Source of the DNA: Candidatus Peregrinibacteria bacterium
GTDB lineage: Bacteria > Patescibacteriota > Gracilibacteria > UBA1369 > PNNO01
Direction of reading: 5' to 3'
DNA: 28,439 nt
Assembly (NCBI GenBank): GCA_030595015.1
Contig: JAUVDZ010000001.1
Coordinates: 1-28,439 of the forward strand
In this document: positions 7,557 to 23,299 of the stretch, one piece after another
How the letters are laid out: each line of letters starts with the position of its first letter
Position numbering within the stretch: position 1 is the first letter of the stretch
The notes under the pieces: model-generated
Database searches by the model: none
What the model was told of the DNA's origin: nothing
The model's input: the letters and a program-made list of their open reading frames with translations, nothing else
Position numbers and translations under genes: made by a program

Positions 7557-9043
7557 TTCTTAATAATTAATGATTTATCCCAGTCTTTTGGCGGTTTTAT
7601 CCCGAGGAGATCCAGTATAGTCGGAGCAATGTTAGAAAGTCCACCCTTTTTACGTAGTTTTGCCTTTTTATATTCATTTGAACAAAGCATGAATACAACA
7701 GGATTCAATGTGTGACTCGGACACTCTTCTCCATTTTTTTCATAAATCATATAATCTGCGTTTCCATGATCTGCAGTTACAAGCACGTGATATCCTTTAG
7801 TCATAGCCGCAGGAACGACTTTGGTTAGACATTCATCAAGAGTTTGGATAGCCTTTATTGTGGCTTTATAATCACCGGAATGACCAACCAGGTCACCATT
7901 TGCAAAGTTCATTGCTATGAATTTGTACTCATTAATTTTTATATCTTTTAAAAATTCTGTTGTGATTTTTTTTGCACTCATTTCTGGTTTCGAAGCGTAT
8001 GATTTTACTTTCGCACTTGGCACAAGAATTCTCTTTTCATTTTTATATGCTTTCTTATCTTGTGAATTAAAAAAGAAAGTTACGTGTGCATATTTTTCTG
8101 TTTCAGCGATTCTTAATTGTTTATAATTTTTCTTTGAAAGAATTGTTCCAAGATTTGTTTTAAGTTTTGGAGCAGGGAATGCAACCTTTGCTTTTTCTGA
8201 ATAAGGCCCAAAACAACAAAAATAGGGCTTGATTCCTTTCATAAACTTTTCAGTAAGCTGAGATGCTCTATCGGTCCTGTAGTTGAAGAAAATCACACTA
8301 TCTTTTTTGGTGATTTTTCCATTTTTATCCAAAACCACCGGTTCAATATAGTAATCTGACTCAATATTTTTTTTGTACTGATTTTTCAAAGCTTGTATTG
8401 GATCATCTTCAAAATGGCCTTTCATTTTAGTTAATAAATCATATGCTTTTTTTGTACGATTCCAATTTGTATCTCGGTCCATTGCAAAATATCTTCCAAC
8501 CATTGTTGCAATTTTTCCAACTCCAATTGCAGCTATTTCTTTTTGAACTCTTTTGATAAATTTATCACCTGAACGCTCCGGAACATCACGACCATCCATA
8601 AACATGTGAATATAAACTTCTTTAATTTTATGTTTTTTAGCGAGTTTTAATAAAGTGAATAGGTGATTGTAATTTGAATGAAGGCCTGCGTCAGAAATCA
8701 TTCCCATTAAATGTAGCTTACTTCCTTTCTTCTTGGCATTTTTAAATGCACCTTCGACTTCTTTGATTTTATCTAGTTTATTGTTTTTGATAACCTGATC
8801 AATTGTTTTCATTGCTCCTAAAACGATTTTACCAGCTCCCATTGTGTAATGACCAACTTCAGAGCCTCCTTGAAAGCCTGGAGGTAAGCCTACAGCAGGC
8901 CCATGGGCTCCAAGTAGAGTTTTAGGGTATGTTCGTCTTAATTTATCTATAAAAGGGGTTTTAGCATTAGTAACAGCGTTCCCTTTATACTTTTTGCCCT
9001 CACCATATCCATCTAAAATAATTAATAGAACTTTTTTATCCAT
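7553..9043 (-). CDS. gpmI: 2,3-bisphosphoglycerate-independent phosphoglycerate mutase
   Basis: LIILDGYG, SEVGH (phospho-Ser), DGRD, GRYFAMDRD, NYRTDRA, ETEKYAHVTFFFN, N.DLVGHSG, TADHGNA and HT.NPV. Confidence 0.96.
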   Translation of the reverse strand: MDKKVLLIILDGYGEGKKYKGNAVTNAKTPFIDKLRRTYPKTLLGAHGPAVGLPPGFQGGSEVGHYTMGAGKIVLGAMKTIDQVIKNNKLDKIKEVEGAFKNAKKKGSKLHLMGMISDAGLHSNYNHLFTLLKLAKKHKIKEVYIHMFMDGRDVPERSGDKFIKRVQKEIAAIGVGKIATMVGRYFAMDRDTNWNRTKKAYDLLTKMKGHFEDDPIQALKNQYKKNIESDYYIEPVVLDKNGKITKKDSVIFFNYRTDRASQLTEKFMKGIKPYFCCFGPYSEKAKVAFPAPKLKTNLGTILSKKNYKQLRIAETEKYAHVTFFFNSQDKKAYKNEKRILVPSAKVKSYASKPEMSAKKITTEFLKDIKINEYKFIAMNFANGDLVGHSGDYKATIKAIQTLDECLTKVVPAAMTKGYHVLVTADHGNADYMIYEKNGEECPSHTLNPVVFMLCSNEYKKAKLRKKGGLSNIAPTILDLLGIKPPKDWDKSLIIKK

Positions 9044-9846
9044 TAGAAAATTGAGTTTAAATAAATGTCGAGAATTAAGTCACCGAACAATAAAGTAACA
9101 AAAGTACCGATTACTAAAAACGGTGCAAAAGGTATTTGCGACTTTGGTGTGACTTTTTTTAAAGCTAATAAAGCTATGCTAATAATAGAACCAATAATGT
9201 AACTTATCAAAACAGCTAGTATTAAAAGCTGCCATCCAAACAATAATCCCATCAGGATCCCAACCTGAACATCGCCTGCACCAAGCCATTTTTCTTTGCT
9301 TATCCATACTTGTGCTCCAAAAAACAAACCTCCTAAAGCTCCGCCAATTACCATGCTTTGCAATCCTGGTTCAGGTAGAAATAATCCAACCACAAATATT
9401 AAAAGAATTGTTGGGAGTGTAAAAATTTCAGGGATTTCTAAATGTTTTGTGTCATAAAAAAGAATTCCAATCAGAATCCATCCTACAAAAACAAAGTATA
9501 TAAATTTTAAAAGTAGAATAAAATCAAAAAATATTATTGCATCAAAATTGAAAGTAAAAAATGGATAAACGAGATAAAAAGAAACAAATAAAAGTCCACA
9601 TACTAATTCTAATAAAAGATAACTGATGTGGATGGGTTTTTTGCAATGAGCACACTTGCCTAAATGCATTAAATAGCTAACTACAGGTATTAAGTCTGAC
9701 CATTTTAAATGTTTATGACAGTATAGGCATTCTGATTTTCCAAAGAAAATCCCTTTTTTTTCTTTATGAAGTCGATAAATAACTACGCTTAAAAAACTTC
9801 CGAATGCTGCCCCGATAATGAAGAGTACAATAATTGGAAGTATCAT
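9043..9846 (-). CDS. pilD: Prepilin peptidase (A24 family, PilD-like)
   Basis: GSFLSVVIYRL, two CxxC pairs (CLYC, CAHC), LIPVVSYL, YD...LEIP, LGAGDV and IPFAPFL; multi-pass TM protein. Confidence 0.93.
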   Translation of the reverse strand: MILPIIVLFIIGAAFGSFLSVVIYRLHKEKKGIFFGKSECLYCHKHLKWSDLIPVVSYLMHLGKCAHCKKPIHISYLLLELVCGLLFVSFYLVYPFFTFNFDAIIFFDFILLLKFIYFVFVGWILIGILFYDTKHLEIPEIFTLPTILLIFVVGLFLPEPGLQSMVIGGALGGLFFGAQVWISKEKWLGAGDVQVGILMGLLFGWQLLILAVLISYIIGSIISIALLALKKVTPKSQIPFAPFLVIGTFVTLLFGDLILDIYLNSIF

Positions 9847-9849
9847 ATT

Positions 9850-11274
9850 TTAGTTTAAAATATTAGCAAGTAATTCATTATATCTTTCTGCTGCAAGTTT
9901 ACCAACAGCTGATCCATCACCTAACTCATATGCTTTTTTGTACATCTCTCTTGCGCGACTATCATCACCCTGGAGTTCATACATTGTTCCTAAATTTAAG
10001 TAAGGAGCATCAAAAGCATGATCAAATGTTAAAGCTTTTTGTAAGTTTTTTTTTCCGTTAATAAAGTCATTGTTTGAAATTTGTGCCCATCCTAATAAAT
10101 TAAAAGCCATAGGGTTATCAGGATGATTAATGCTCGCGATTTCAGCTAACTCAACCGCTTTTGCGGGATTACTAACTTTATCAATATAAACCCAAATCGG
10201 CCGCACAAAATAATCCAAATCGCTCGCATTCATGCTAATAACTTCTTCATATTTTTCACTCGCTTTTTCATAATCCTCTACTTGAAAATATAGTTCTGCC
10301 AATTTTTGTTCTACATGAATTTTAGGTTCATAATTTAATTTCAAAGCAAGTTCCAATGACTTAATTGCATCTTCCAGTTGATTATTTCCTGCGTAAGCCA
10401 AACCTAAGTAAAATAAAGTCTCTGGTTTATCAGGATCCTGCCTTGCTGCTTCTTCTAACGCATCAACTGCATCCTGATAGCTATTTAACTGAAGATAACT
10501 GTAACCCAAAACAATCCAGGCATCACGATAAGTTCGATCCTCCTTTAAAACCTGCCACAAAAGCTCTTTTGCCATTTGCGGTTGTTCGTTTTGCACCATT
10601 GCACGCGCAACCAAAACTTTTAAATGTTCATGAAGTCCGGCTTGATATGCATCAAATTCATTCATTGCATTAATCATTCTCTGTGTTTTTGCTTTAATAT
10701 CCAGTGATGGATTTTTTTCAGGATCAATAGCGCCATTTAATAAACCACGAGCTCTTTCATACTCTCCAAAATATAAAGCAATCATACCCTGATAATAAAG
10801 AACATCCGGGTAATCAATTGTGATACTGTCTAGTATGGTTTTTGCTTCAGTGAATTGCTCTAAGCCAATATTTGCACGTCCTAAAATTACTTTTGCGTCA
10901 GTATTTGTTTCGTTTTTTTGTAGGATTTTAGTAGCAAGATTTTTTGCCCCTTCATAATTTCCTTCCAAAATTTGAAGTTCACCGATTTCAACTAAAGGTT
11001 CGATTCTGTCTGGCTCTTCTTCACTTGCATTAGTATATGAATCGATTGCAAGAGCGTAAAATCCACTTGTTTTAAATGTATCTCCTTTTTGCATATATTC
11101 TTCATAGGATTTTCGACGTTCTACTTTATCCGGAGTATCTGGGACTTCAACTAAAATAGTTTCTTCAGGTCGGTCTTTTAGAAAATTAATATCTATTACA
11201 TCAAAAACATATAGTGATAAAACTACTAATGTAATTAATAATATGATATTTAGGACGGTAAGTATTCTTCTCAT
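9850..11274 (-). CDS. Membrane-anchored tetratricopeptide-repeat (TPR) protein
   Basis: One N-terminal TM helix followed by many 34-aa TPR units, e.g. AWIVLGYSYLQLNSYQDAVDALEEAARQDPDK and TLFYLGLAYAGNNQLEDAIKSLELALKLN. Confidence 0.88.
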   Translation of the reverse strand: MRRILTVLNIILLITLVVLSLYVFDVIDINFLKDRPEETILVEVPDTPDKVERRKSYEEYMQKGDTFKTSGFYALAIDSYTNASEEEPDRIEPLVEIGELQILEGNYEGAKNLATKILQKNETNTDAKVILGRANIGLEQFTEAKTILDSITIDYPDVLYYQGMIALYFGEYERARGLLNGAIDPEKNPSLDIKAKTQRMINAMNEFDAYQAGLHEHLKVLVARAMVQNEQPQMAKELLWQVLKEDRTYRDAWIVLGYSYLQLNSYQDAVDALEEAARQDPDKPETLFYLGLAYAGNNQLEDAIKSLELALKLNYEPKIHVEQKLAELYFQVEDYEKASEKYEEVISMNASDLDYFVRPIWVYIDKVSNPAKAVELAEIASINHPDNPMAFNLLGWAQISNNDFINGKKNLQKALTFDHAFDAPYLNLGTMYELQGDDSRAREMYKKAYELGDGSAVGKLAAERYNELLANILN

Positions 11275-11768
11275 GCGGGAACAGTGTAAAGTGATTGATT
11301 GTTTAAGCAGTGCCCGTGAGTAACTGCTATTGCAAGCGCATCAGCAGCATCATCGGGTTTTGGAATATCTTCTAAATTTAAAAGTATTTGCATCATTTTT
11401 TGAATTTGAGGTTTCTTTGCTTTTCCATCTGAACAAATTGCCTGTTTAATTTGCATTGGATTATAAGAGGCAACTGGAATCTGTTCTTCTGTTATTTTTT
11501 GCATAATTACGCCTCGTGCCTGAGCAACGCTAATTGCAGTTTTAACATTTTTTGAGAAAAATATCTCTTCAACTGCTGCATAGTCAGGTTTAAATTTGCT
11601 AATTATAATTGAAAGATCAAAAGCTATTTCATTGAGTCTTGCGGGAAGTTCTAAATCTTTTGAAGTAGTTATGCAACCGTATGTAATCATTTTAAAACCA
11701 TTAGGTCCTTCTTCTACTACGCCATATCCAGTTGTTGCAGTACCAGGATCGATACCTAAAATACGCAT
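11271..11768 (-). CDS. ruvC: Holliday junction resolvase RuvC
   Basis: ILGIDPG...TGYGV, AVEEIFF.KN, QARGV, IKQAI and DDAADALAIA. Confidence 0.97.
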   Translation of the reverse strand: MRILGIDPGTATTGYGVVEEGPNGFKMITYGCITTSKDLELPARLNEIAFDLSIIISKFKPDYAAVEEIFFSKNVKTAISVAQARGVIMQKITEEQIPVASYNPMQIKQAICSDGKAKKPQIQKMMQILLNLEDIPKPDDAADALAIAVTHGHCLNNQSLYTVPA

Positions 11769-11804
11769 AAAATAAAAAGTGTTACATACCTTCCTATTTT
11801 ACTT

Positions 11805-13178
11805 TTATAAAGTCGTTGATACAATATGATTTTGCTTATTTCCAGTGTATAAAATAGCAACTTTCTTACCTTTTTCTCTCGGAAGCAGCTTTTTTATATC
11901 TTTAAGGTAATTTTTCTTTGTAACTTTTCCAACCACAATATCATTTATTCCCCATAATAGAGCCAATTGATTTGCAGTCTTTTTTGAATTGGTAATTACG
12001 ATAGTTGGAACGTAACATCTGTGTTTTGAAACATAACGAGCTTGTTTGTCATCATCAGTAACAACAATTATTCGATCAGCCTTGGTTTTTTCAGCGATTT
12101 TACAAATTTCAAGACCCAAAGCATCCAATAAAACTTCTTTATTATGAATCTGCCTCACTGGCAGCAAGTGATCATATTTTTTTAATTCAGCTTCAACCAG
12201 AGTCGCAACTTTTGCAAACATCTGCACAGCTTTAATAGGATATTTGCCAACAGCAGTTTCATTTGAAAGCATAATTCCATCTGAATGATCATAAATTGAA
12301 TTCGCAATATCACTAACTTCAGCTCTGGAAGGCGTAGGATTATTAACCATTGAAGCAAGCATTTGAGTGGCTGTAATAACAGGCTTTCCAGCTAGATTAC
12401 AAAGCCGAATTATTTCTTTTTGAACAATCGGAACCCTCTCAGGACCAATCTCCATCGCTAAATCACCACGCGCAACCATCAAAGCATCTGAAGCCTCAAT
12501 TATCTCTTTTAAATTCTCAACAGCCTCACTTCTTTCAATTTTTGCAATAATTTTCACGTTTTGACCTTCTAATAGTTTTCGTAAATTGTGAATATCCTTT
12601 GCTTCTGTTACAAAACTCAAAGCGACATAATCAATATTTTGAGTTAATCCAAATTTGAGATCCTTTTTATCTTTCGCAGTGATAGGGGATATTGAGATAG
12701 TCGCGTTAGGAACGTTAATCCCTTTATTTGCACGAATCACACCTGAATTCAAAACTTTACAATGAATATCTTTTTTAGCCTTTCGCACTACTTTAAGCTC
12801 AATCAATCCATCATCAATAAGTAAGAGAGAACCTTTTTTAACGTCTTTATAAAGGCCTTTATATTGAACCGGTATTTTATTATCGGATTTAGGCCCACAA
12901 GTTAAAATAATCTCTTTGCCCTTTGTGACTTTTGTATCATCAATTTTTCCAACTCGAATTTTAGGACCCTGAAGATCCTGCATAATAGCCAGAGGAACGC
13001 CAACTTTCTTAGCTGCAGCTCTAATTCTTTTAATTAAAAGCGCATGATTATCATAAGATCCATGCGAAAAGTTAAGTCTAGCAACATCCATTCCAGCTTT
13101 CATCAGCTTTTGCAATATTTCCGGCGATTCTGATGCCGGACCAAGCGTACAAACAAATTTTGTATTATGAGCTCTCAT
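11805..13178 (-). CDS. pyk: Pyruvate kinase
   Basis: TKFVCTLGPAS, ARLNFSHG, DLQGPKIRVG, IIAKIER, MVARGDLAME, ATQMLASM and MLSNETAVG.YP. Confidence 0.97.
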   Translation of the reverse strand: MRAHNTKFVCTLGPASESPEILQKLMKAGMDVARLNFSHGSYDNHALLIKRIRAAAKKVGVPLAIMQDLQGPKIRVGKIDDTKVTKGKEIILTCGPKSDNKIPVQYKGLYKDVKKGSLLLIDDGLIELKVVRKAKKDIHCKVLNSGVIRANKGINVPNATISISPITAKDKKDLKFGLTQNIDYVALSFVTEAKDIHNLRKLLEGQNVKIIAKIERSEAVENLKEIIEASDALMVARGDLAMEIGPERVPIVQKEIIRLCNLAGKPVITATQMLASMVNNPTPSRAEVSDIANSIYDHSDGIMLSNETAVGKYPIKAVQMFAKVATLVEAELKKYDHLLPVRQIHNKEVLLDALGLEICKIAEKTKADRIIVVTDDDKQARYVSKHRCYVPTIVITNSKKTANQLALLWGINDIVVGKVTKKNYLKDIKKLLPREKGKKVAILYTGNKQNHIVSTTL

Positions 13179-13200
13179 AAAACGAGTTTAATTTCCCTCT

Positions 13201-13209
13201 ATTATACCA
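13201..13209 (-). promoter_or_regulatory. Extended -10 promoter TG-G-TATAAT for pyk, lying in the loop of a CCCTCT/AGAGGG inverted repeat
   Basis: attataccag at 13201-13210; IR arms at 13195-13200 and 13213-13218. Confidence 0.55.
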
Positions 13210-13226
13210 GAAAGAGGGGATTTATG

Positions 13227-14432
13227 CTATTCACTTCTTAGTGCATCAACGGGGTCAAGTCTACTTGCTTTTAATGCAGGATAAAAACCAAAGAATATTC
13301 CAACAATAACAGAGAAAGAGAATGCAATTACAACCCCTAATACTGAGGCAACGACGGTCATATTTGCAAATTTTTCTACTAAAGGTAAAATCGCTTGTCC
13401 GACGCCAATTCCTATGACGCCACCAATAATTGAAAGTATAATTGATTCAAGTAAAAATTGCATAAGTATATCACTTTGTTTTCCTCCAATTGCTTTTGCG
13501 ACTCCAATTTCTTTTGTTCTCTCTGCAACAGTAACAAACATTACGTTCATTATTCCAACACCTGATACTAGCAATACAATTGCAGCGACTGAGGTTAGCA
13601 ATATTGTCATGGTTGAAGCAGTACTTTGAGCTGCTCCGATTATACTACCTGCATTTAATAACCTGAAATCATCATCTTTATCTGCTTTAAGATTATGCGC
13701 TTCTCTTAATATTAAACCTAGTTCTTCAAAAGCAAGATCTATCACGTCAAGATTATCTGCTAACACTGTAAGCATAATTCGAGTACCAGTACCTAGAATG
13801 CTTTTTTCTGCTGTTGAATAAGGGATGTAAATTGAATCATCATATGAAAGGAATTGGCCCATTGTTGTTCCTGTTTCTTCTAAAGTACCAATTACTTCAA
13901 GAGTTTTAGCTCCAACATTAATTGTTTCCCCGATTGCAGATTCCGGATCTCCATCAAATAATTCTTCTACAATTGTACTTCCAAGTACTGCAACTCTTGC
14001 TCTATTATCGTTATCTTCTTCAGTATAAAGTTCGCCAATAACTAAATTTAGATTTGAAATTTCAAATTGATTTGGCAAGGCTCCAAATATTGTAAATTGA
14101 TTTGATGCTCTACCGTAAGAAACTTGCATATCTCCGCTAACAGCAGCAGTTGCAGTGTCGATATATTGTTCATTTGACATAATAGTATTAACATCTTCAG
14201 CACTGATTTTAGAAGCTGTTGTGACACTTTGTCCTCTGCTTTCTAATACAATAATTGATGTAACACTTAAATTTTTATATTGGTCTGCAACATCTTGCTG
14301 AGCACCTGCACCGATACCCACTACTGCAATAACTGTTGAAACTCCGATTATAATTCCAAGCATTGATAGCAAAGTCCTAATTTTGTTGGCCAATAGAGCT
14401 TCAATGGCCATTCTTAACATTTCAAAACTCAT
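13227..14432 (-). CDS. ABC transporter permease, MacB/FtsX type
   Basis: RTLLSMLGIIIGVSTVIA, a large periplasmic domain, GVGIMNVMFVTVAERTKEIGV.KAIG and FFGFYPA.KASRLDPVDALRSE. Confidence 0.93.
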   Translation of the reverse strand: MSFEMLRMAIEALLANKIRTLLSMLGIIIGVSTVIAVVGIGAGAQQDVADQYKNLSVTSIIVLESRGQSVTTASKISAEDVNTIMSNEQYIDTATAAVSGDMQVSYGRASNQFTIFGALPNQFEISNLNLVIGELYTEEDNDNRARVAVLGSTIVEELFDGDPESAIGETINVGAKTLEVIGTLEETGTTMGQFLSYDDSIYIPYSTAEKSILGTGTRIMLTVLADNLDVIDLAFEELGLILREAHNLKADKDDDFRLLNAGSIIGAAQSTASTMTILLTSVAAIVLLVSGVGIMNVMFVTVAERTKEIGVAKAIGGKQSDILMQFLLESIILSIIGGVIGIGVGQAILPLVEKFANMTVVASVLGVVIAFSFSVIVGIFFGFYPALKASRLDPVDALRSE

Positions 14433-15136
14433 AATTTGGGTAGTTTATAGTCCTGATCAATTATTTGACCATCTCTTAAAAATATAATTCTGTCTCCATA
14501 TGTGGCGATAGCTGGTTCATGTGTAACCATAATTATTGTTTTTCCTTTCTCATTTAAATCTTTAAAAATTTTCATTACTTCTTTACCAGATTTTGTATCT
14601 AATGCTCCAGTTGGCTCATCAGCTAAAATTATTTCAGGATCGTTTACTAATGATCGTGCAATTGCAACACGTTGTTGTTGGCCACCTGATAGTTCAGTAG
14701 GCTTATGATGAATCCTGTCTTCAAGTCCTAGACTTTTTAGAATTTTAGCTGCATTTTCTTCACGTTCATGTTTTGGCGAACCTGCATATAACGCAGGAAG
14801 TGCAACATTTTTTAATGCTGTTGATTTTGAAAGTAAATTGAATTGTTGAAAAACAAATCCAATTAATTTATTTCTAATAAAAGCTAAAGTGTAGTCATCA
14901 CGTACAGTGCCAATATTTTCACCTTTCATATGATAACTACCACTTGTTAAAGGATGAAGGCATCCAAGTATGTTTAGTAAAGTAGATTTCCCTCCACCAC
15001 TTTCACCCATTATTACTAAAAATTCACCTTTATTAACAGTAAGATCTAATCCTTTTAAAATAGGGACTTCAATACCGTTAGATAGGAAGTATGATTTATG
15101 AATATTTTCTAAATGAATTAAGATATTTTCTGGCAT
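14429..15136 (-). CDS. ABC transporter ATP-binding protein, MacB/LolD type
   Basis: Walker [21 protein letters not shown], signature [13 protein letters not shown], Walker [12 protein letters not shown] and H-loop VTHE. Confidence 0.95.
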
Positions 15137-15141
15137 TTTAA

Positions 15142-16962
15142 TTATTTATAAATTTTATCACCAGCATTAAGGCCACTAATTATTTCAACTTTACTACCAT
15201 CTGTGAAGCCAGTTATAACATTCAGCCATTCATTATTTTCCATTTGAACTGAGGGTTTACCTTCGTAATTTTTGACAGCAGATACAGGGATCACTAGGAC
15301 ATCAGTAGTTTCTGAAATAACAAATTCTACAAAACTTGTCATACCTTCTCTAATTCCAGCGTCTCTAACATCATCTAATAAAATTCTAACTAAATAAGTT
15401 ACAATGCCACTGTTATCAGTTTTTGAGGTTAAAGAGACATAACTAACTTCACCAGTTAATTTCACTCCTTCAACCGCATCAAATGTTGCATATATTTTTT
15501 GATTAACGCTAATTTTATTTATATCCATTTCTTCTACATTAGCTTCAATATAAAAAGTGTCTTTATTTAAAATAGTTACAAATGATTCATTGGTATCTTT
15601 GACAATATATTCATCAACTTTACCGTTTAATTGCGCAATTTCGCCATTAATTGGCGCGTAGAGTGTTGCTAATTGGATATCATAATTCAGTTTATCAATT
15701 CTATATTGAGATTTATCAACGGCTGCTTTTAATGAAGTTAAATCTGTACTACTTATACCTTCATTTTTTTGATCTAATTGTATTTCTGCATTTTCAAGTT
15801 GAAGAAGCGCATCTTCTTCTGATGCATCTGCTTTTGTTTTAGCAGTTTTTAAACTTATTACTGCTTCATCATATTTGTCCTGAATAGTATCTTCGCTATT
15901 TTCTAACTTAGCAGAATCAATTGCCTGATTAGCATTAATTAAAGATTCTTTTTGAGAATTTATTGATGATTGCTGACTAGTAATTAAATTAATAAATGAT
16001 TCTAATTCAGTTTCTGTATAAGTTGATTCAAAACTCTGATAATCAAGAGAGATCCTCATCAAATCAAGCATTTCCTGAGTATTTTCAATAACATTTAAAG
16101 CTGAGTCCAAATTTTCCATAATTAAATCCTCACCATCTTCAAATTTTATATCATCATATGTATTTTTGTGTTCATTATACAAATTAATAACAACATTATA
16201 TTGTAAATCTGTATAAATTACATTTTGAAGATTTCTGACTTTATTATATTTATATGAGTTTTCATAAAGCACTTTTTCAATAGCAGCAATTGAACTATTA
16301 ACTGCTAATATTGAACTATTTACTTTTGAAATTGAATCCTCTAAAGCCTGATTAACCTTAAGCTGATCTTGCTCGATTTCATCATCAATATTGTCCAGAT
16401 TTTTTTTTGCTTGTTCATAATCAAGCTCAGCTTTTTCAATATCCAATTCATTTTGTTTAATAATTTGATCTAAATTTGCTTGAGCCTGCTCAACATTCAA
16501 TAGCGCTAGCTCAAGCTCGTTCTCAGTTACATCATTTTCTTTTGCTTCTAAATTAGCTTTTGCAATCTCTAAATCAGCATAGGCAGAAGCAAGATCAATT
16601 CCCATGTAAGTGGTATCAACTTTAGCTAGCTTCGCACCTTTTACTACAAAGTCGCCTTCATTTACGTATATTGCATCTATTGTGGTCCCAGAAGTGCTAA
16701 AAGATAGGTCAACGCCATCCTCAGCTACAACTTTACCATCTGTTTCAATAGAAACAGTTATATCATCTTTAGCAACTGTATAAATTTGTCTTTCAACAAC
16801 TTTATTGTCTGTATCTCCATCTTCAAAGAAAGAAAAAATACCAAGTATCAATAATAATATTATTCCAACTGCTAATAGTAATTTCCATTTTTTAAATATT
16901 TTATGCACTAAACCATTTAGACCCTTTGAATTTCTGCTTTGCTCCAGTATTGATTTTTCCAT
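15142..16962 (-). CDS. Efflux periplasmic adaptor (MacA/YknX-like) with a very long helical hairpin
   Basis: TM anchor, split lipoyl halves (IYVNEGDFVVKGAKLAKVD at aa 98-116 and LYAPINGEI at aa 434), beta-barrel VEEMDINKI..GMT and C-terminal VEIISGLNAGD. Confidence 0.9.
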   Translation of the reverse strand: MEKSILEQSRNSKGLNGLVHKIFKKWKLLLAVGIILLLILGIFSFFEDGDTDNKVVERQIYTVAKDDITVSIETDGKVVAEDGVDLSFSTSGTTIDAIYVNEGDFVVKGAKLAKVDTTYMGIDLASAYADLEIAKANLEAKENDVTENELELALLNVEQAQANLDQIIKQNELDIEKAELDYEQAKKNLDNIDDEIEQDQLKVNQALEDSISKVNSSILAVNSSIAAIEKVLYENSYKYNKVRNLQNVIYTDLQYNVVINLYNEHKNTYDDIKFEDGEDLIMENLDSALNVIENTQEMLDLMRISLDYQSFESTYTETELESFINLITSQQSSINSQKESLINANQAIDSAKLENSEDTIQDKYDEAVISLKTAKTKADASEEDALLQLENAEIQLDQKNEGISSTDLTSLKAAVDKSQYRIDKLNYDIQLATLYAPINGEIAQLNGKVDEYIVKDTNESFVTILNKDTFYIEANVEEMDINKISVNQKIYATFDAVEGVKLTGEVSYVSLTSKTDNSGIVTYLVRILLDDVRDAGIREGMTSFVEFVISETTDVLVIPVSAVKNYEGKPSVQMENNEWLNVITGFTDGSKVEIISGLNAGDKIYK

Positions 16963-16975
16963 TTTTATAAAATGA

Positions 16976-17548
16976 TTACATGCTTCTAATAACTACAAAT
17001 TCTGCAATATTTCTGTCAGCAATCTCTTTATTAAGCCAGATCGTAAGCATTCCACCTACTTTAACATCTTCTAAAGAAGCATTATTATCTTGAGGTGTAT
17101 TATTTTGTTCTTCAGTTTTTATTCTGCCACCGCCTGTTTTTATCATTTGAATCCCAACTGGAATTGTTATTTTTATATCACCTAATGATTCCATTGAATC
17201 AAATATTGCAGTAGGATCTCCACTTCCATTACCTGTTCCACCACCCATCCCACCACCACTGCCAATTCCACCAGATGCAACAATAGTGGTTTTTTCTTCT
17301 TCGGTTATAGTAGTTGGTGTTTTTTCTTCTATTTCAGATAAATCATATTGAGTTATAGTTATTTCATTTCCAACCATCGTTTTAATAATGCCCACAATAT
17401 TAGCTTCACTTTCGGGTTTTTGATATTGTTGAATAGAATTTTGTTCAGAATTCTCTGCTGAGTTTCCTGATGTGCATGCTGAAAATCCCATTACAGTAAT
17501 TAATAAAATTATGCATAATGAAACAAACTTGATTATTAGTTTAAACAT
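16976..17548 (-). CDS. Hypothetical lipoprotein, first gene of the ABC operon, with a Gly-rich linker
   Basis: Signal peptide with lipobox FSAC (Cys25) and the segment GGIGSGGGMGGGTGNGSG; 13 nt from the adaptor gene. Confidence 0.75.
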   Translation of the reverse strand: MFKLIIKFVSLCIILLITVMGFSACTSGNSAENSEQNSIQQYQKPESEANIVGIIKTMVGNEITITQYDLSEIEEKTPTTITEEEKTTIVASGGIGSGGGMGGGTGNGSGDPTAIFDSMESLGDIKITIPVGIQMIKTGGGRIKTEEQNNTPQDNNASLEDVKVGGMLTIWLNKEIADRNIAEFVVIRSM

Positions 17549-17657
17549 TTTGATTAAATTAAAAGTTGCCCTACAAATTAATACAATTGTACCTGTGGTT
17601 TTCTTTCAATAAAAGAAACAATGACTTTACAATTGCGTAGATATATTCTCTAACTTT

Positions 17658-17741
17658 CTAGCTATCTATTAATACATCCAAATCAATTGAAATATCTTCA
17701 AATCGTTTTTGAAGTAATTTTTTAGAATCTTCAATTCCTTT
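17658..17741 (-). pseudogene. Displaced 3' end (27 codons + TAG) of the DUF2164 gene
   Basis: Translates KGIEDSKKLLQKRFEDISIDLDVLIDS* versus KGIEDSKKLLQKRFEDISIDLDVLGDQ* at 18240-18157. It has no start, and there is an in-frame TAA upstream at 17780-17778. Confidence 0.85.
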
Positions 17742-17752
17742 TAGCCTATTAA

Positions 17753-17784
17753 AGCTTGACAAAATTAAGACAAGCTGTTAAAGT
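17753..17784 (+). promoter_or_regulatory. Promoter TTGACA-N17-TAAAGT (extended -10) with the overlapping palindrome AGCTTG-N12-CAAGCT
   Basis: TTGACA at 17756-17761, TG at 17776-17777 and TAAAGT at 17779-17784. IR arms at 17753-17758 and 17771-17776. Confidence 0.7.
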
Positions 17785-17811
17785 ATGTCCTTACAAATTA
17801 ATAAAATAATT

Positions 17812-18153
17812 ATGGAAGTTAAATCAATAAAACCAAATAATAGTAGAGATGGAATTCCAGCTGATATGAGTTTTGAGCCAACTGACAAACTACGAATTGC
17901 AATCCTGTCCATTTTTGAAGAACCAGGTAATCACTTTGATGTTATCTGGCCTGGACAGGATAAACTTCTCCATTTATATAGTGAGGATAGAATAATCGAA
18001 TTTCTTGAAATTTCTAATTCTGAGTTAACTGATTTACTTATGGATGAGGAGATTGAAGAATTAAAAGCTTTAGATAGCGGCTCCGTTAGTTCTATCATTA
18101 ATCTAATTGGAAGAGCGCTTTGGGAAAGAGCTAAAGTTGATTGTAAAGAATAA
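17812..18153 (+). CDS. Orphan acidic hypothetical protein (cargo of the 499-bp insert)
   Basis: The ORF track starts at 17785, but that ATG directly abuts the -10 box. The in-frame ATG at 17812 (MEVKSIKP..., 113 aa) fits the promoter. The protein is D/E-rich with no recognised motif. Confidence 0.7.
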   Translation: MEVKSIKPNNSRDGIPADMSFEPTDKLRIAILSIFEEPGNHFDVIWPGQDKLLHLYSEDRIIEFLEISNSELTDLLMDEEIEELKALDSGSVSSIINLIGRALWERAKVDCKE

Positions 18154-18156
18154 TAA

Positions 18157-18411
18157 TTATTGATCCCCAAGCACATCCAAATCAATCGAAATATCTTCAA
18201 ATCGTTTCTGGAGTAATTTTTTAGAATCTTCAATCCCTTTGCTGTAGATGAATAGAGCAGTGCTTTCTAAAAAGAAATCCAAAACTTCTTCAGCAGCAAT
18301 CATGCCAATTTCTTCATCTCGTTTCTCTTTGAAAAAGTGAATGATTTCTTCACTAACTCTTTTTTTCTCAGGTTTTGAAAGGAGATCCCATTTTCGTTTG
18401 ATTTCTTTCAT
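18157..18411 (-). CDS. DUF2164-family protein
   Basis: 84 aa; I..FF...RDEEIGMIAAEEVLDFFLE......Y.KGIED matches DUF2164; 1 nt after the glmS stop. Confidence 0.8.
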   Translation of the reverse strand: MKEIKRKWDLLSKPEKKRVSEEIIHFFKEKRDEEIGMIAAEEVLDFFLESTALFIYSKGIEDSKKLLQKRFEDISIDLDVLGDQ

Positions 18412-18412
18412 A

Positions 18413-20197
18413 TTATTTAACTGTTACAGACTTCGCTAAATTCCTAGGCATATCCGGGTTGTTTTCACGTAATAAGGCGAGTTGATATGCAAGTAGTTGT
18501 ACTGGAATGATGTTGATGATAGGAGACGCATTGCCTCCATCCGGTACTTTTATCCAATAATCGAATACTTCGTGGTTGTCTGGGGAAACACCGATTATAT
18601 AGCCGCCTCGTGATCCGACTTCGATTGCGTTTGATATTATTTCGTGTTTAGTCTCGTCGTTTGAAACTAAGGCGATGCAAGGCACTCCGTCGTGAATTAA
18701 TGCGATAGGGCCGTGTTTGAGTTCGCCTCCGGCAAATCCTTCAGCGTGAATGTATGAAACTTCCTGTAATTTGATTGCAGCTTCTAAAGCCATTGGGTAG
18801 TTCATTCCTTTTCCTATTACATACATGCTTTCGTGGTCTTTAATTTGCTTAGCGAGTTTTAAAATATGTTCTTCATACCTCGGATTTAACATGTCATTGA
18901 TTTTACTTGCTGTATCAACGAGCAAAATTTTTCCTTCGTCTAATTTGTCAGCGCAGGCGTATGCGAGCAAGGTGAGAATTGCCATTTGAGCGGTTGTTGC
19001 TTTTGTTGATGCTACAGCCTTTTCTGGCCCTGCTTTGATGTAAATTGAATAATCTGAGATTCGATCCATTGAAGATCCTTCAACATTTATAATTGAAAGG
19101 ACTTTTGCACCTTTTTTCTTTGCAATTTCAAGAGCTTCCATTGTGTCAGCGGTTTCACCTGATTGAGAAATAGCAATAACCAGGCTTTTATCAGTAATAA
19201 AGTTTTGCATTGATGGAAATTCTGATCCAAAAGTTGTGTTTACATGTCGTTCTGCAACTTTTGAGAATAAATATGAGCCAGCGAGTGCAACTTTTCCTGC
19301 AGTTCCACATCCAATTATATAAGTTCCATAAGCACTTTTAATTTCTTCTGCAATTTTCATAATCATTTCATCATCCTGATTAATTGCACGTGCAATTGTA
19401 TCTTTTTGTTCAGAAATTTCTTTAATCATAAAATGAGGGAAGTCGCCTTTCTCTGCGCTTTCAACATCCCAATCAATCTCAACAACACGTTTATCTATTT
19501 TATCTCCGCTTTTAATATCAAAAAATTCAACTTTATCATTAATAACAACCATTTGATCATCATCTAAATACATTACATTACGAGTGTATTCTAAAAATGC
19601 AGGAATATCCGAAGCAACAAAGAATTCGTCTTCGCCTTTTCCAACAATTAACGGAGATCCGCGACGTGCTGCGATTAATTTATCTTCATCAGCGCACATA
19701 ACTAAAATTGCATAACGACCTTCAAGTCGTTCAATTGCTTTTTTAACTGACTCAACAATGTCATTATCTTTTTTATATTCCTGAATTAGTTGAGCAATAA
19801 CCTCTGTATCAGTTTCTGATTCAAACTTGTAACCTTTTTCTTTAAGTTCATTCCTTAATTCAATATAATTTTCGATAATTCCATTATGAACAATAGCAAT
19901 CGACTTATCTGTAGAATAATGCGGATGTGCATTTTCAACAGTAACTCCACCATGAGTCGCCCAACGCGAATGTCCCATTGCTAAACTGCACTCACGTTTA
20001 AGATCGCATTCAGGAGGTGGGTTATCAAAATCAAAATCGCTGATTTTTCCTATCTCTTTATAAATAGAAACTTCGCCATCGCATTTTGAAGCAACGCCCC
20101 ATGAATCATAACCTCGATATTCGAGCTTCTTTAAGCCTTTAATGACAAGTTCGCTTGCATTAGTTTTTGGCCCTTTATAGGCAAATATTCCGCACAT
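18413..20197 (-). CDS. glmS: Glutamine--fructose-6-phosphate aminotransferase
   Basis: True start MCGIF at 20197 (catalytic Cys1; the ORF-track extension overlaps purQ). Also LEYRGYDSWG, GHSRWATHG, VHNGIIEN, SQSGETADT, ELKHGPIALI and PRNLAKSVTV. Confidence 0.97.
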   Translation of the reverse strand: MCGIFAYKGPKTNASELVIKGLKKLEYRGYDSWGVASKCDGEVSIYKEIGKISDFDFDNPPPECDLKRECSLAMGHSRWATHGGVTVENAHPHYSTDKSIAIVHNGIIENYIELRNELKEKGYKFESETDTEVIAQLIQEYKKDNDIVESVKKAIERLEGRYAILVMCADEDKLIAARRGSPLIVGKGEDEFFVASDIPAFLEYTRNVMYLDDDQMVVINDKVEFFDIKSGDKIDKRVVEIDWDVESAEKGDFPHFMIKEISEQKDTIARAINQDDEMIMKIAEEIKSAYGTYIIGCGTAGKVALAGSYLFSKVAERHVNTTFGSEFPSMQNFITDKSLVIAISQSGETADTMEALEIAKKKGAKVLSIINVEGSSMDRISDYSIYIKAGPEKAVASTKATTAQMAILTLLAYACADKLDEGKILLVDTASKINDMLNPRYEEHILKLAKQIKDHESMYVIGKGMNYPMALEAAIKLQEVSYIHAEGFAGGELKHGPIALIHDGVPCIALVSNDETKHEIISNAIEVGSRGGYIIGVSPDNHEVFDYWIKVPDGGNASPIINIIPVQLLAYQLALLRENNPDMPRNLAKSVTVK

Positions 20198-20210
20198 AGT
20201 TTTTTTAGAA

Positions 20211-21524
20211 TTAAGCTTTATAAATATCCATTGAATGTGGATTGTGGAAGATATGTGTTTCAACAATCTTTGATGCTTCATCTGCATCGCAGGTTAGCGA
20301 CCATCTTTTTCCTGCATGGATTCGCTGCACACCTTTTATTTCAAAATGGTTTTGAATTGTTTGTAATCGGCTTTCACCAACTGTATCTTCTTTATTAAAT
20401 GTTAGATAGCTTTCACCTCCAACTTCTTTTTCGTCGATTTCACTTAATCCTTCTGCAGGATCAAACTCGTAATATTTATCACCAATTTTGATTAATGGTG
20501 ATTCTTTTGCCATATTCACTATTTCACCGGATTTCAATAAAGCATCGGCAGTTTCAACTTTATCAATATCACCTGATGTTTTAATTCCGTAATATAAAAG
20601 TTTTTTAAGTTTAGCTTCACCAAATCCTAAATTGTGAATCGCTGATTCAAGAGTTCTTTCTTCGTTATCAGTGATTACAGTATCAACAAATACTTCAATG
20701 TCAGGTTTGTTATAATTTCCAACTTCACCAACTTCAAAAGCTGGTTTATTCATCACTAAATCAGTTGGTCGCGCAATTTCGAAACTTTTTCCAATATATT
20801 CACGAATTGATTCAAAAATCGGATCGCCAACCTCAGTTCTTTCAGGATGTGGCATCAAACTCATTACATTTCCTTCAGGATTACAAACTCCAGCCAAATT
20901 TAGCAAAGCTCCGTTTGGATTAGTAGGGAAGTCTTCCTTAATTTCACCGTTTTCATCACAATATCTAAATACGGTTTGTTCATTTTTCAAGAGTAACTCT
21001 TTCATTTCAGGATCAATCGAAGTAAATCGGCCTTCTCCATGAGCAACCGGGATTCTTAATAATTGATCCTGTTCATAATAGTTAAATGCTGATCGGCCTT
21101 TTGGTACAGCGTTTTTTATGTAAATCCAGTCATTATAAAATCCAGTTCCTAAAATATTCCCGTCTTTATCAACTCGTTTATTCCATGCTAATGCCATTTC
21201 AACATGTTTTTTATCTAAGCCAGGAATTAGCCCAGCTTCAACAACTACCTGTGCTCCGTTACAAACACCTAAAACAGGTTTTCCTTTATTTGCTTCTTCC
21301 CGAACTTTATCAAGTAATGCGTTTTTAGATGCGATAATTCCGCTGCGTCCTCGATCTTCATAACTAAATCCACCTGGAATAAAAAATCCATCAAAACTCG
21401 CATAATCAACTTCTGTGTCATTCCATCTTATTAGTTTAGGTTCCATCCCGCTTCGCTTAATCGCCCTTAAAGCTTCAAGTTCGCAATTGGTTCCAGGAAA
21501 CAATATTACAGCTATTTTTGGCAT
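20211..21524 (-). CDS. purQ: FGAM synthase glutaminase subunit PurQ fused to two C-terminal PurS-like modules
   Basis: FPGTNC, PGGFSYED, LGVCNG (C88), PVAHGEGRF, NPNG and MPHPER (H226/E228) lie within aa 1-245. The remaining ~190 aa contain two PurS-like repeats. Confidence 0.9.
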   Translation of the reverse strand: MPKIAVILFPGTNCELEALRAIKRSGMEPKLIRWNDTEVDYASFDGFFIPGGFSYEDRGRSGIIASKNALLDKVREEANKGKPVLGVCNGAQVVVEAGLIPGLDKKHVEMALAWNKRVDKDGNILGTGFYNDWIYIKNAVPKGRSAFNYYEQDQLLRIPVAHGEGRFTSIDPEMKELLLKNEQTVFRYCDENGEIKEDFPTNPNGALLNLAGVCNPEGNVMSLMPHPERTEVGDPIFESIREYIGKSFEIARPTDLVMNKPAFEVGEVGNYNKPDIEVFVDTVITDNEERTLESAIHNLGFGEAKLKKLLYYGIKTSGDIDKVETADALLKSGEIVNMAKESPLIKIGDKYYEFDPAEGLSEIDEKEVGGESYLTFNKEDTVGESRLQTIQNHFEIKGVQRIHAGKRWSLTCDADEASKIVETHIFHNPHSMDIYKA

Positions 21525-21525
21525 A

Positions 21526-22593
21526 TTATATTTTGATTATTATGTCTTTTAATTGCTTAGGAGCATTTGTGATATTTTTCGCTCCTGTACGGGATATTAT
21601 TAGCATATCTTCGATGCGAACACCAAAGTTTTTGGGTAGATATATACCCGGTTCTATTGTGGTGATCATATTCTCTTTTAGTTTGTATGGTTTCTCGATT
21701 CCAAGGTTTGGTAATTCATGGATATTTAGTCCGGACCCATGCCCTAAAGCATGCTGGAAATATTCTTCCATATTTTTTTCTTTGATTGGTTTCATTGCGG
21801 CTTTTACAACATTTGCAACCGTAGCATTATGTTTAAGTGCATCAATTGCAGCTTGCTGTGAGGCCAGAACGGTTTCATAAACCTTAGCCTGTCGCGTTGT
21901 GGGTTTTGAAGTAAAAAATGTTCGTGTCATATCTGAACAATAGTGTTTATATTTCACACCCATATCAATTAAAATTGTGTGTCCTTTTTTAAGTTTTCGA
22001 TTTGTATTTTGATGATGGGGGATTGCCGAATTAGATCCAAAAGCAACAATAGGATCAAACGAAGAATCTTCAGCTCCTAATTCGCGTTGAGCTTTAATTA
22101 TAAACCATTCAACTTCAGTTTCGGTTCTGCCAACTTTTAAGTAATTTAAGACTTCATCAAGCACTTGTTCGTTTATTCTCTGCGATTTCCTCATACGTGC
22201 GATTTCATACCCCTGTTTGATTTCCCTGATTTGTTCAACAATATTCCCGGCCTTTTTAAATCGAACTCCTTTTGAGATTTTTTTAAGCCCAGCATATTGA
22301 TTTACTGTTAAATAGTTTTCTTCGAATCCTAAATCTTTTACACGGAATTTTTTAAGGATTTTTGGCCAGTCTTGTTTCCATTTTTTATCTATTTGCATAA
22401 CTTCAAAATCGGGTGGTACGATTTTTTTAGCGTATTCGAGGTAGCGGAAGTCCGTGAAAAAATATGCTTTTCGTTTTGTGATTAAAATCATACCGCGCGA
22501 ACCTGTGAATCCTGTTAAATAATAAACATTAAGAGGATCACTTATGAACAACGCATTGAAGTTTTTAAAGTGTTTTCTGATTTGTTTAAGCAT
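21526..22593 (-). CDS. Xaa-Pro aminopeptidase / M24 peptidase
   Basis: N-terminal creatinase-like domain (N..YLTGF.GS, TDFRY), DMG...Y.SDMTRT, H.LGHG.GL.IHE.P and TIEPGIY...GVRIED. Confidence 0.93.
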   Translation of the reverse strand: MLKQIRKHFKNFNALFISDPLNVYYLTGFTGSRGMILITKRKAYFFTDFRYLEYAKKIVPPDFEVMQIDKKWKQDWPKILKKFRVKDLGFEENYLTVNQYAGLKKISKGVRFKKAGNIVEQIREIKQGYEIARMRKSQRINEQVLDEVLNYLKVGRTETEVEWFIIKAQRELGAEDSSFDPIVAFGSNSAIPHHQNTNRKLKKGHTILIDMGVKYKHYCSDMTRTFFTSKPTTRQAKVYETVLASQQAAIDALKHNATVANVVKAAMKPIKEKNMEEYFQHALGHGSGLNIHELPNLGIEKPYKLKENMITTIEPGIYLPKNFGVRIEDMLIISRTGAKNITNAPKQLKDIIIKI

Positions 22594-23152
22594 TTTGGAG
22601 GAAGTATTTAATTATATCTTCAGGCTCTTTTATTTCTTGCGGTAAGTTTTTGAGTTTTTGTATGATTTGATGCTTTCTGTAGCCAAGATTTATTAAAGCT
22701 CCAATTGCATCTTCGTTTAAATTTGAAGGAGTTTTATAGTTTTCCGGCTCACTTGTTGCACTGATTTTTTCTTTAAGATCAATTACAATACGTTCTGCTG
22801 TTTTTTTGCCGATTCCTTTTGTTTGAACAAGAAGATCAACATCTCCTTTTGAAATTGCGAATCTAATTGAAGATAGGGGATTGTTTAGAATTTCAAGTCC
22901 TGATTTAGGACCAACTCCTGAAACTGAGATTAATAACTTGAATGTTTCGAGTTCTTCAAATGTCGCGAATCCATATAAACTAATATCATCTTCACGAACT
23001 GCTGTGTGAATGTATAGTTCAACGGAATCATTGGCTTCGTGCTCGCTTAGATAATTGTGGGTTGCTGAAACCAGATATCCAATTTCTCCAGCATTTAAAA
23101 TAATTGCTGAAGGCAGCTTTTTTTGAATTGTTCCTGTGAGGTATGCGATCAT
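22586..23152 (-). CDS. ruvA: Holliday junction branch migration protein RuvA
   Basis: MIAYLTG, LYIHTAVRED..LYGF, LISVSGVGPK, GIGKKTAERIVIDLK and ALINLGY. Confidence 0.96.
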   Translation of the reverse strand: MIAYLTGTIQKKLPSAIILNAGEIGYLVSATHNYLSEHEANDSVELYIHTAVREDDISLYGFATFEELETFKLLISVSGVGPKSGLEILNNPLSSIRFAISKGDVDLLVQTKGIGKKTAERIVIDLKEKISATSEPENYKTPSNLNEDAIGALINLGYRKHQIIQKLKNLPQEIKEPEDIIKYFLQNA

Positions 23153-23158
23153 AAGACA

Positions 23159-23167
23159 ATTATAGCA
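23159..23167 (-). promoter_or_regulatory. Extended -10 promoter TG-C-TATAAT, 6 nt before the ruvA ATG (leaderless candidate)
   Basis: The minus strand reads AAATGCTATAAT-TGTCTT-ATG, with TATAAT at 23164-23159 and ATG at 23152. Confidence 0.65.
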
Positions 23168-23299
23168 TTTGAAAGATGAAAATTGAATGCGATTTAGTTA
23201 TTGTTATTACTCTGGCTTGACGTTTGTTTTTGAGCGCGTTGAAATATGCAGATTCTGGCATGTGTCAGCCAATAGTCAATGGTTTTTTGTTGCGAATTT

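Follow-up and report, generated by a model that had tools for sequence, protein, structure and literature searches.

The window analysed here is an entire contig (28,439 nt; 28.4 kb) of G000, a metagenome-assembled genome from a cold-seep metagenome (1.13 Mb, 151 contigs, 79% complete). Read along the minus strand, it carries glmS, a small DUF2164 gene, a four-gene export operon and the pyruvate kinase gene pyk, with one ORF on the plus strand placed convergently against the DUF2164 stop, and the 3' end of the DUF2164 gene occurs in it twice. The features are given below in ascending coordinates.

11805 to 13178, minus strand: pyruvate kinase (pyk; Pfam PK, PK_C), the conserved right border of a variable slot
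13179 to 13222, minus strand: right half of a conserved element, with the extended -10 promoter TGGTATAAT before pyk
13223 to 17741, minus strand: the whole block interpreted as inserted, 4519 nt, flanked by a 4-nt direct repeat TAAA (minus strand)
13227 to 17548, minus strand: four-gene export operon (lipoprotein, MFP, ABC, MacB)
13227 to 14432, minus strand: MacB/FtsX permease (Pfam MacB_PCD+FtsX)
14429 to 15136, minus strand: ABC ATPase (Pfam ABC_tran)
15142 to 16962, minus strand: membrane-fusion protein, MFP (Pfam HlyD_D23/HlyD_3)
16976 to 17548, minus strand: lipoprotein
17549 to 17612, minus strand: the operon's own promoter and leader, co-linear with the region 5' of the homologous operon in L025
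17613 to 17657, minus strand: spacer of about 45 nt between the stop of the distal tail and the operon leader
17658 to 17741, minus strand: distal repeat copy, the displaced tail (tail'), from K58 to the stop, ending IDS-TAG; left end of the block
17742 to 17755, minus strand: left half (14 nt) of the conserved element upstream of the pyk/69-aa gene promoter, ending ...TAATAGGCTA (minus strand)
17756 to 17784, plus strand: promoter-like site of ORF122 (TTGACA, 17 nt, TAAAGT with TG; 10/12 matches, a consensus match only)
17785 to 18153, plus strand: ORF122, probable start ATG at 17812 (113 aa), of a small WPG...AVWERAK family
18157 to 18240, minus strand: proximal repeat copy, the tail of the intact gene from K58 to the stop, ending GDQ-TAA
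18157 to 18411, minus strand: intact DUF2164 gene, 84 aa (Pfam PF09932, E 7e-20)

The DUF2164 protein shares 87-95% amino acid identity with its same-genus orthologues encoded immediately 3' of glmS, and no solved structural relative of DUF2164 was found. A repeat search returned a direct repeat between 17674-17741 and 18173-18240 (68 nt, 94% identical, spacing 499), and on the minus strand tail' is in the DUF2164 frame from Lys58 and reaches its stop at the equal position; the 27-codon tail that the initial annotation had seen twice, 499 bp apart, was thus found again. Over codons K58-L81 the copies agree at 65 of 72 bases, and the 7 differences, spread over 6 codons (GGG/GGA, CTC/CTT, CAG/CAA, TCG/TCA, GTG/GTA, CTT/TTA), are all synonymous. 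The last three codons are unlike (GDQ-TAA in the gene, IDS-TAG in tail'), 25 of 27 amino acids are identical overall, and the similarity breaks off at the Lys codon, so the pattern of divergence described earlier was recovered codon by codon. In a simulation with random placement of substitutions, the probability of 7/7 synonymous differences under neutrality was 3e-5 to 1.5e-4, a signature of purifying selection, and each variant state of the distal copy is also present in functional alleles of relatives. These two observations together indicate, in agreement with the earlier claim that both ends evolved as functional gene ends in different lineages, that the two tails derive from two functional alleles of different lineages. 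The K58-to-stop segment is almost invariant across the genus, and the C-terminal three residues vary among the functional alleles of relatives at constant length. The proximal tail differs from the L019 allele at only 2/72 positions. Tail' differs from all sampled same-genus alleles at 7-11/72 nt and is closest to none, and no full-length protein ending in VLIDS occurred among the homologues retrieved from a 5.8-billion-protein database. A recent local duplicate under neutral decay was rejected as the origin of tail', since its differences are synonymous only and it is equidistant from several alleles.

The initial annotation had named a strain-chimeric assembly as one thing that could overturn its reading. 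Such an artefact has some opening in a genome held in 151 contigs at low depth (about 8x) from a sample in which related strains co-occur, but an independent k=31 assembly of the same sample (Logan) gives a single 5183-nt contig at depth 8.2 that covers 16800-18219 with 0 differences and even depth. This contig runs from the distal copy over the 17741/17742 junction and ORF122 into the proximal tail, of which it includes 63 nt with the diagnostic bases; this support comes from contigs, not raw reads, and the stretch compared takes in 17741/17742, not 13222/13223. Furthermore, on either side of 17741/17742 the sequence has no more than 3 nt in common with two hypothetical parent alleles; no path through a k-mer (de Bruijn) graph could therefore create the junction by misjoining. 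We consider a chimera in the metagenome-assembled genome extremely unlikely. Joints that would indicate a circle, including the 499-bp circle junction suggested earlier, were also sought in contigs assembled from four runs, from which rare variants drop out, and none was seen.

Genes of the ORF122 family abut the DUF2164 stop in convergent orientation in G002, G004, L019, L024/L027-L029 and L026. At least six related lineages carry a family gene in this position and the repeat is absent from them; the spacing to the DUF2164 stop is mostly 0 nt, with 3 nt in G000 and a 7-nt overlap of the stop in L026. This shared position makes the pairing of DUF2164 with a convergent ORF122-family gene the apparent ground plan of the genus, with ORF122 and its promoter native to the locus. 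A promoter-like site does lie between the copies, as the initial annotation had noted, but the ORF is not the orphan it was taken for: foreign orphan cargo was rejected on its conserved position in relatives, and the proposal that 499 bp with ORF122 is foreign DNA that entered Campbell-style does not agree with family genes holding the same place in at least six lineages. The family loci compared, at each of which the gene is convergent with DUF2164 and abuts it, are window 17785-18153, L011:5399-6999, L019:852-1145, L024:1443-1787 and L026:541-846. Their products range from 68 to 223 aa (one G004 gene is two-domain), and the hallmarks in the alignment are an R-I-x-I strand, WPG and a C-terminal helix ending in AVWERAK....E. 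A profile search of 1.84 billion proteins returned only 17 representatives, and ORF122 shares about 30% amino acid identity with ORF97 of L019. ORF122 had no Pfam match, no Atlas match and no Foldseek match better than E 0.02, and its AF2 model has a pLDDT of 67.5. The family looks non-enzymatic and, judged from these comparisons, is tiny, fast-evolving and tied to the DUF2164 locus. It persists even in the L037-L040 lineage, where it stands beside a DUF2164 of 26 codons.

That shortened gene was observed in L037 (5292-5374) and also in L038-L040, where DUF2164 is cut to its first 26 codons and a stop and abuts the family gene ORF96. The truncation suggests that DUF2164 is dispensable in this lineage and that its border is prone to rearrangement. 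As the break lies near codon 26, a recurrent breakpoint at K58 was dismissed.

Both flanks of the locus are collinear with G004, which by its label is a Patescibacteria single-cell genome of the same genus, and with G002, on one side through 18157-23170 (DUF2164, glmS, a purQ-type gene, peptidase M24 and RuvA) and on the other through pyk at 11805-13178; 13227-17548 has no counterpart at this locus in either genome. The pyk gene is syntenic in all relatives. Nearly every sampled lineage has its own content between DUF2164 and pyk, and the relatives carry the following alleles.

L031: empty, 66 nt (432-496) with the conserved promoter element and then pyk, without a family gene and without the 69-aa gene
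L026: one ORF122-family gene
L024, L027 and G002: one family gene and the 69-aa gene
G004: three genes, the 69-aa gene and a 187-aa gene
L019: family gene and a 168-aa gene, on a 1773-nt contig that stops before pyk
L020: a 145-aa membrane protein
L030: a Wzy_C protein and a 192-aa gene

The 69-aa gene lies between the promoter element and pyk in G002, G004, L020, L024 and L030; L026 and L031 lack it, and no copy turned up in the 79% complete G000. In almost all alleles the cargo begins 0-3 nt from the DUF2164 stop (in L026 with a 7-nt overlap), and none of the sampled slot alleles contains a recombinase or integrase. The DUF2164-pyk interval is thus a hypervariable slot with at least seven cargo states, the empty one included. 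The variable-cargo slot that the initial annotation had offered as one possibility is borne out by the empty allele of L031 and the other cargo of L020, L030, G004, L019 and L024, none with an integrase. Among the related DUF2164 loci collected, the expected empty and other-cargo alleles were present and larger islands with an integrase were not.

The border of the slot is also a mosaic. At the 3' end of glmS, G000 is 95-98% identical to L026 and 80-90% identical to L019, whereas in DUF2164 it is 83-88% identical to L026 and, over codons 14-78, 95-98% identical to L019 (window 18176-18716); at the 5' end of pyk it is 86% identical to L026. The switch from L026-like to L019-like sequence falls near 18380-18410, at the glmS/DUF2164 border. 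This pattern indicates that recombination broke the sequence where glmS borders DUF2164 and again at the DUF2164 stop, and it shows that homologous exchange is frequent around DUF2164. At its other end, the longest glmS ORF (18413-20287, 624 aa) starts 31 codons 5' of the conserved MCGIFAY start of the relatives (593 aa) and runs into the gene before it; the internal ATG is probably where glmS really starts.

The exact position of the extra DNA in G000 is given by a conserved element upstream of pyk. Its left half, at 17742-17755, aligns with ACTAGGCTAA (L026) and ACTAGTCTAAA (G004). On the other side, the 48 nt between the permease stop and the pyk start (minus strand), which include the extended -10 TGGTATAAT, are 86.7-92.3% identical to the region 5' of the 69-aa gene or of pyk in L020, L024, L031 and G004; in L026 only a 14-nt core of the right half matches, and this relative is placed by the joined alignment. 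When 17742 (...AGGCTA) is joined to 13222 (AATCCCC...), the alignment runs gap-free through the promoter with L026, G004, L031 and L020, the four relatives in which the element is uninterrupted and has the same spacing. Because removing 13223-17741 restores the element without a gap, the DNA that is extra relative to the relatives would be this 4519-nt block, starting with tail'. TAAA stands at both junctions of the block. No terminal inverted repeats and no att-like core were found at the block, and the 28-kb window contains no recombinase or transposase. Clean interruption of sequence that is contiguous in relatives, with a microhomology joint and no terminal inverted repeats, is the pattern of an illegitimate insertion. 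On this reading DUF2164 would never have been interrupted and nothing rebuilt, in contrast to the earlier idea that an insert had rebuilt the gene end.

Most of the block is the export operon. The same operon, with equal gene lengths, occurs in L025 (a 541-kb JGI contig) at 54/62/86/82% amino acid identity (lipoprotein/MFP/ABC/MacB), and the homology between G000 and L025 extends from the promoter and leader to the MacB stop, so that the only extra flank of the operon in G000 is the 84-nt tail' and about 45 nt. This 45-nt spacer has no similarity to any relative locus compared, and the lipoprotein was not found in 40 relatives. In L025 the operon lies within a 6.1-kb segment (7857-14028) together with two hypothetical genes (240 and 133 aa), and this segment is bounded by 62-nt direct repeats, 97% identical, which are the 3' part of a tRNA-Arg(GCG) gene (full copy 13952-14028, partial copy 7857-7918). 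With no recognisable integrase in it, the segment is a true case of an island that lacks an integrase and restores a 3' gene end. The homologous operon in a different context, supported by the tRNA repeats that bound its segment, suggests that the operon is movable cargo.

The reading towards which we lean, with modest confidence, is that the operon block was inserted from the allele of a relative by illegitimate, probably homology-facilitated recombination, and that tail' is a leftover of the donor flank. The recipient would have had the usual order of glmS, DUF2164, a convergent ORF122-family gene and the pyk promoter, with ORF122 followed directly by GGCTAAATCCCC and pyk, and its uninterrupted site would have read ...AGGCTAAATCCCC... 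The donor would have been a related genome with the operon as cargo directly 3' of a functional DUF2164 in the same slot; this former position of the operon is suggested by the tail' flank, which is about 90% identical to the tail of G000. After uptake of DNA from a co-occurring relative, a donor fragment starting by chance at codon 58 of the donor DUF2164 would have entered as the 4519-nt block at TAAA inside the element upstream of the pyk promoter, with an illegitimate left joint at A-rich microhomology and the other side most likely anchored by homology in the pyk promoter or pyk. G000 encodes ComEC, natural transformation has been demonstrated in Saccharibacteria, with com genes conserved across the phylum (PMC10633639), and the locus is a mosaic, all of which fits with DNA uptake from a relative. 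The identity of G000 to L026 is 95-98% in glmS but 86% at the 5' end of pyk, which would be compatible with a donor-derived anchor on the pyk side but is not diagnostic of one. In this account we infer how the donor was arranged, which way the transfer went and which enzymes acted. A donor allele with DUF2164 ending in VLIDS followed by the operon was not found when the tail pattern was sought in metagenome and genome collections, and searches for sequencing runs with tail' plus the spacer, and for the lipoprotein in 40 relatives, gave nothing beyond the known relatives.

If the block was imported in this way, it would be a datable trace of genes passing between related, uncultured Patescibacteria: a whole export operon would have been acquired, with a piece of the donor's adjacent gene still marking where the operon came from. 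The comparison also delimits a small hot spot of recombination (glmS-DUF2164 / cargo / pyk), which could serve as a strain marker or a neutral insertion site. Together these would make the locus a clear natural case of gene flow within a genus and of a small, hypervariable Patescibacteria slot.

Against an import of the operon stands that no donor allele was found in any collection or run searched, that the loss of no recipient DNA at the illegitimate joint is unusual for homology-facilitated events as the literature describes them, and that the identity switch between glmS and DUF2164 is also predicted by a rival displacement. In that displacement the resident order would have been glmS-DUF2164(IDS)-45 nt-operon-pyk, and a 499-bp unit consisting of a new tail, ORF122 and its promoter would have come from a relative and pushed the old tail aside. 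The unit would have arrived either as a small circle, recombining once within the 84-nt homology, or as linear DNA that was anchored in glmS/DUF2164 and joined illegitimately at K58 on its right; the linear route resembles C-terminal displacement. The A-B-A' order fits this model exactly, the switch from L026-like to L019-like sequence near 18380-18410 lies where its left crossover would be, and a comparable displacement model has been published for T6SS effector-immunity arrays and Rhs loci (PMC5361080). However, ...AGGCTA and AATCCCC... would then be adjacent in the ancestral element only by coincidence (roughly 1 in 50), the L019-like tract ends at the DUF2164 stop and does not continue through ORF122 (about 30% amino acid identity to ORF97), neither tail' nor the pyk side is L026-like, and no circle junction was seen in contigs. 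The comparative evidence favours insertion of a tail-bearing block over displacement, which we regard as unlikely. Less likely again is a duplication of the tail in situ, after which one copy was replaced by the allele of a relative through homologous recombination or gene conversion, leaving only synonymous differences. In its favour, tandem duplication at microhomology is a common event, most of DUF2164 lies in a recent L019-like tract, and both copies read AAA AAA (KK) where the closest sampled alleles (P0002-P0008) read AAA ATA/ATT or AAC; K at the second AAA position is also present in the more distant G002 and L030, and the shared KK could come from conversion between the copies. Such a history would take at least three independent events (duplication, insertion of the operon at the same nucleotide and allele replacement), and tail' is about as far from the gene copy (7/72) as from other alleles (8/72). 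Moreover, the rest of the unit is not duplicated, the spacer being the operon's own leader.

A site-specific cassette system without its own integrase, in which the DUF2164 tail or TAAA would act as the attachment site and the recombinase would be encoded elsewhere, appears highly improbable. It would explain why nearly all alleles have their cargo starting 0-3 nt from the DUF2164 stop, it has a parallel in L025, where the segment with the operon is bounded by 62-nt repeats of the tRNA-Arg 3' end and lacks a recognisable integrase, and one full tyrosine recombinase is encoded elsewhere in G000. Against this, only one displaced tail occurs among about 12 lineages, the L037-L040 truncation of DUF2164 breaks at another codon, and the cargo borders have neither inverted repeats nor a shared core; dense gene packing is normal in these small genomes, and the lone tyrosine recombinase is most simply an Xer-type housekeeping enzyme. 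We rate as very improbable the related idea that a trans-acting recombinase services the slot and places promoter-bearing cassettes or operons beside a copied 3' gene end. If it were true, the MacAB-type operon would be an integrase-less passenger, found once with a DUF2164 tail (G000) and once between tRNA-Arg repeats (L025).

Compared with known systems, the locus most likely holds an ordinary recombination scar, a known kind of event, and not a new mobile cassette or mobility mechanism. Integrative islands of one type carry an attP that makes the 3' end of their target gene (tRNA, tmRNA or protein-coding) whole again. The locus resembles these islands in its direct repeat (68-84 nt) of the 3' end of the target and in the intact gene that is kept, but differs from them in having no integrase, an interior made up of the native neighbour gene, extra DNA outside the repeats and no excision product seen in contigs; the attP strategy of tRNA/tmRNA islands invoked by the initial annotation is therefore not supported here beyond the 3'-end repeat itself. 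That architecture is truly present at the L025 operon, with its tRNA-Arg 3' repeat. Integron cassettes are likewise small single-gene units without a recombinase of their own at variable array positions, yet here there is no IntI and there are no attC-like imperfect inverted repeats, and the cargo has its own promoters and mixed orientations. A likeness in position is also offered by C-terminal displacement and orphan arrays (Rhs, CDI, T6SS; PMC5361080), where a displaced 3' end also lies 3' of an intact gene beside variable cargo and arose by recombination between alleles. There, unlike here, the tails are divergent toxin domains; the two DUF2164 tails agree at 25 of 27 amino acids, and after tail' come 45 nt and an operon leader instead of a cognate immunity partner. 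Homology-facilitated illegitimate recombination in natural transformation, for which cases in Acinetobacter, S. pneumoniae and P. stutzeri are cited in PMC5361080 and PMC3240628, shares with the locus the DNA of a relative, a joint at 3-4 nt of microhomology, no recombinase, a stray donor flank and competence genes in the recipient. It differs in that the anchor is inferred here, no recipient DNA was lost, and the event is deduced from one natural genome and not observed.

Two short features of the leaders and promoters at this locus were also noted. A 19-nt motif, CCYTACAAATTAATAMAAT, occurs at 17569-17587 and 17789-17807 (17/19 identical, same strand, 220 nt apart), and these are its only two copies in the whole genome (local-alignment P about 0.0025). 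One copy lies in the 5' leader of ORF122 and the other in the operon leader, which is co-linear with the L025 leader; the pair is possibly a short conversion patch, a shared regulatory site or chance. The motif pair had raised the idea that the left 190 nt of the block are a relic of a second tail-ORF-UTR unit, which was rejected because the spacer is co-linear with the L025 operon leader. At the pyk promoter, the -10 TGGTATAAT is bracketed by a short palindrome (CCCTCT ... AGAGGG in G000; CCCC ... GGG in relatives), which may be an operator or a hairpin.
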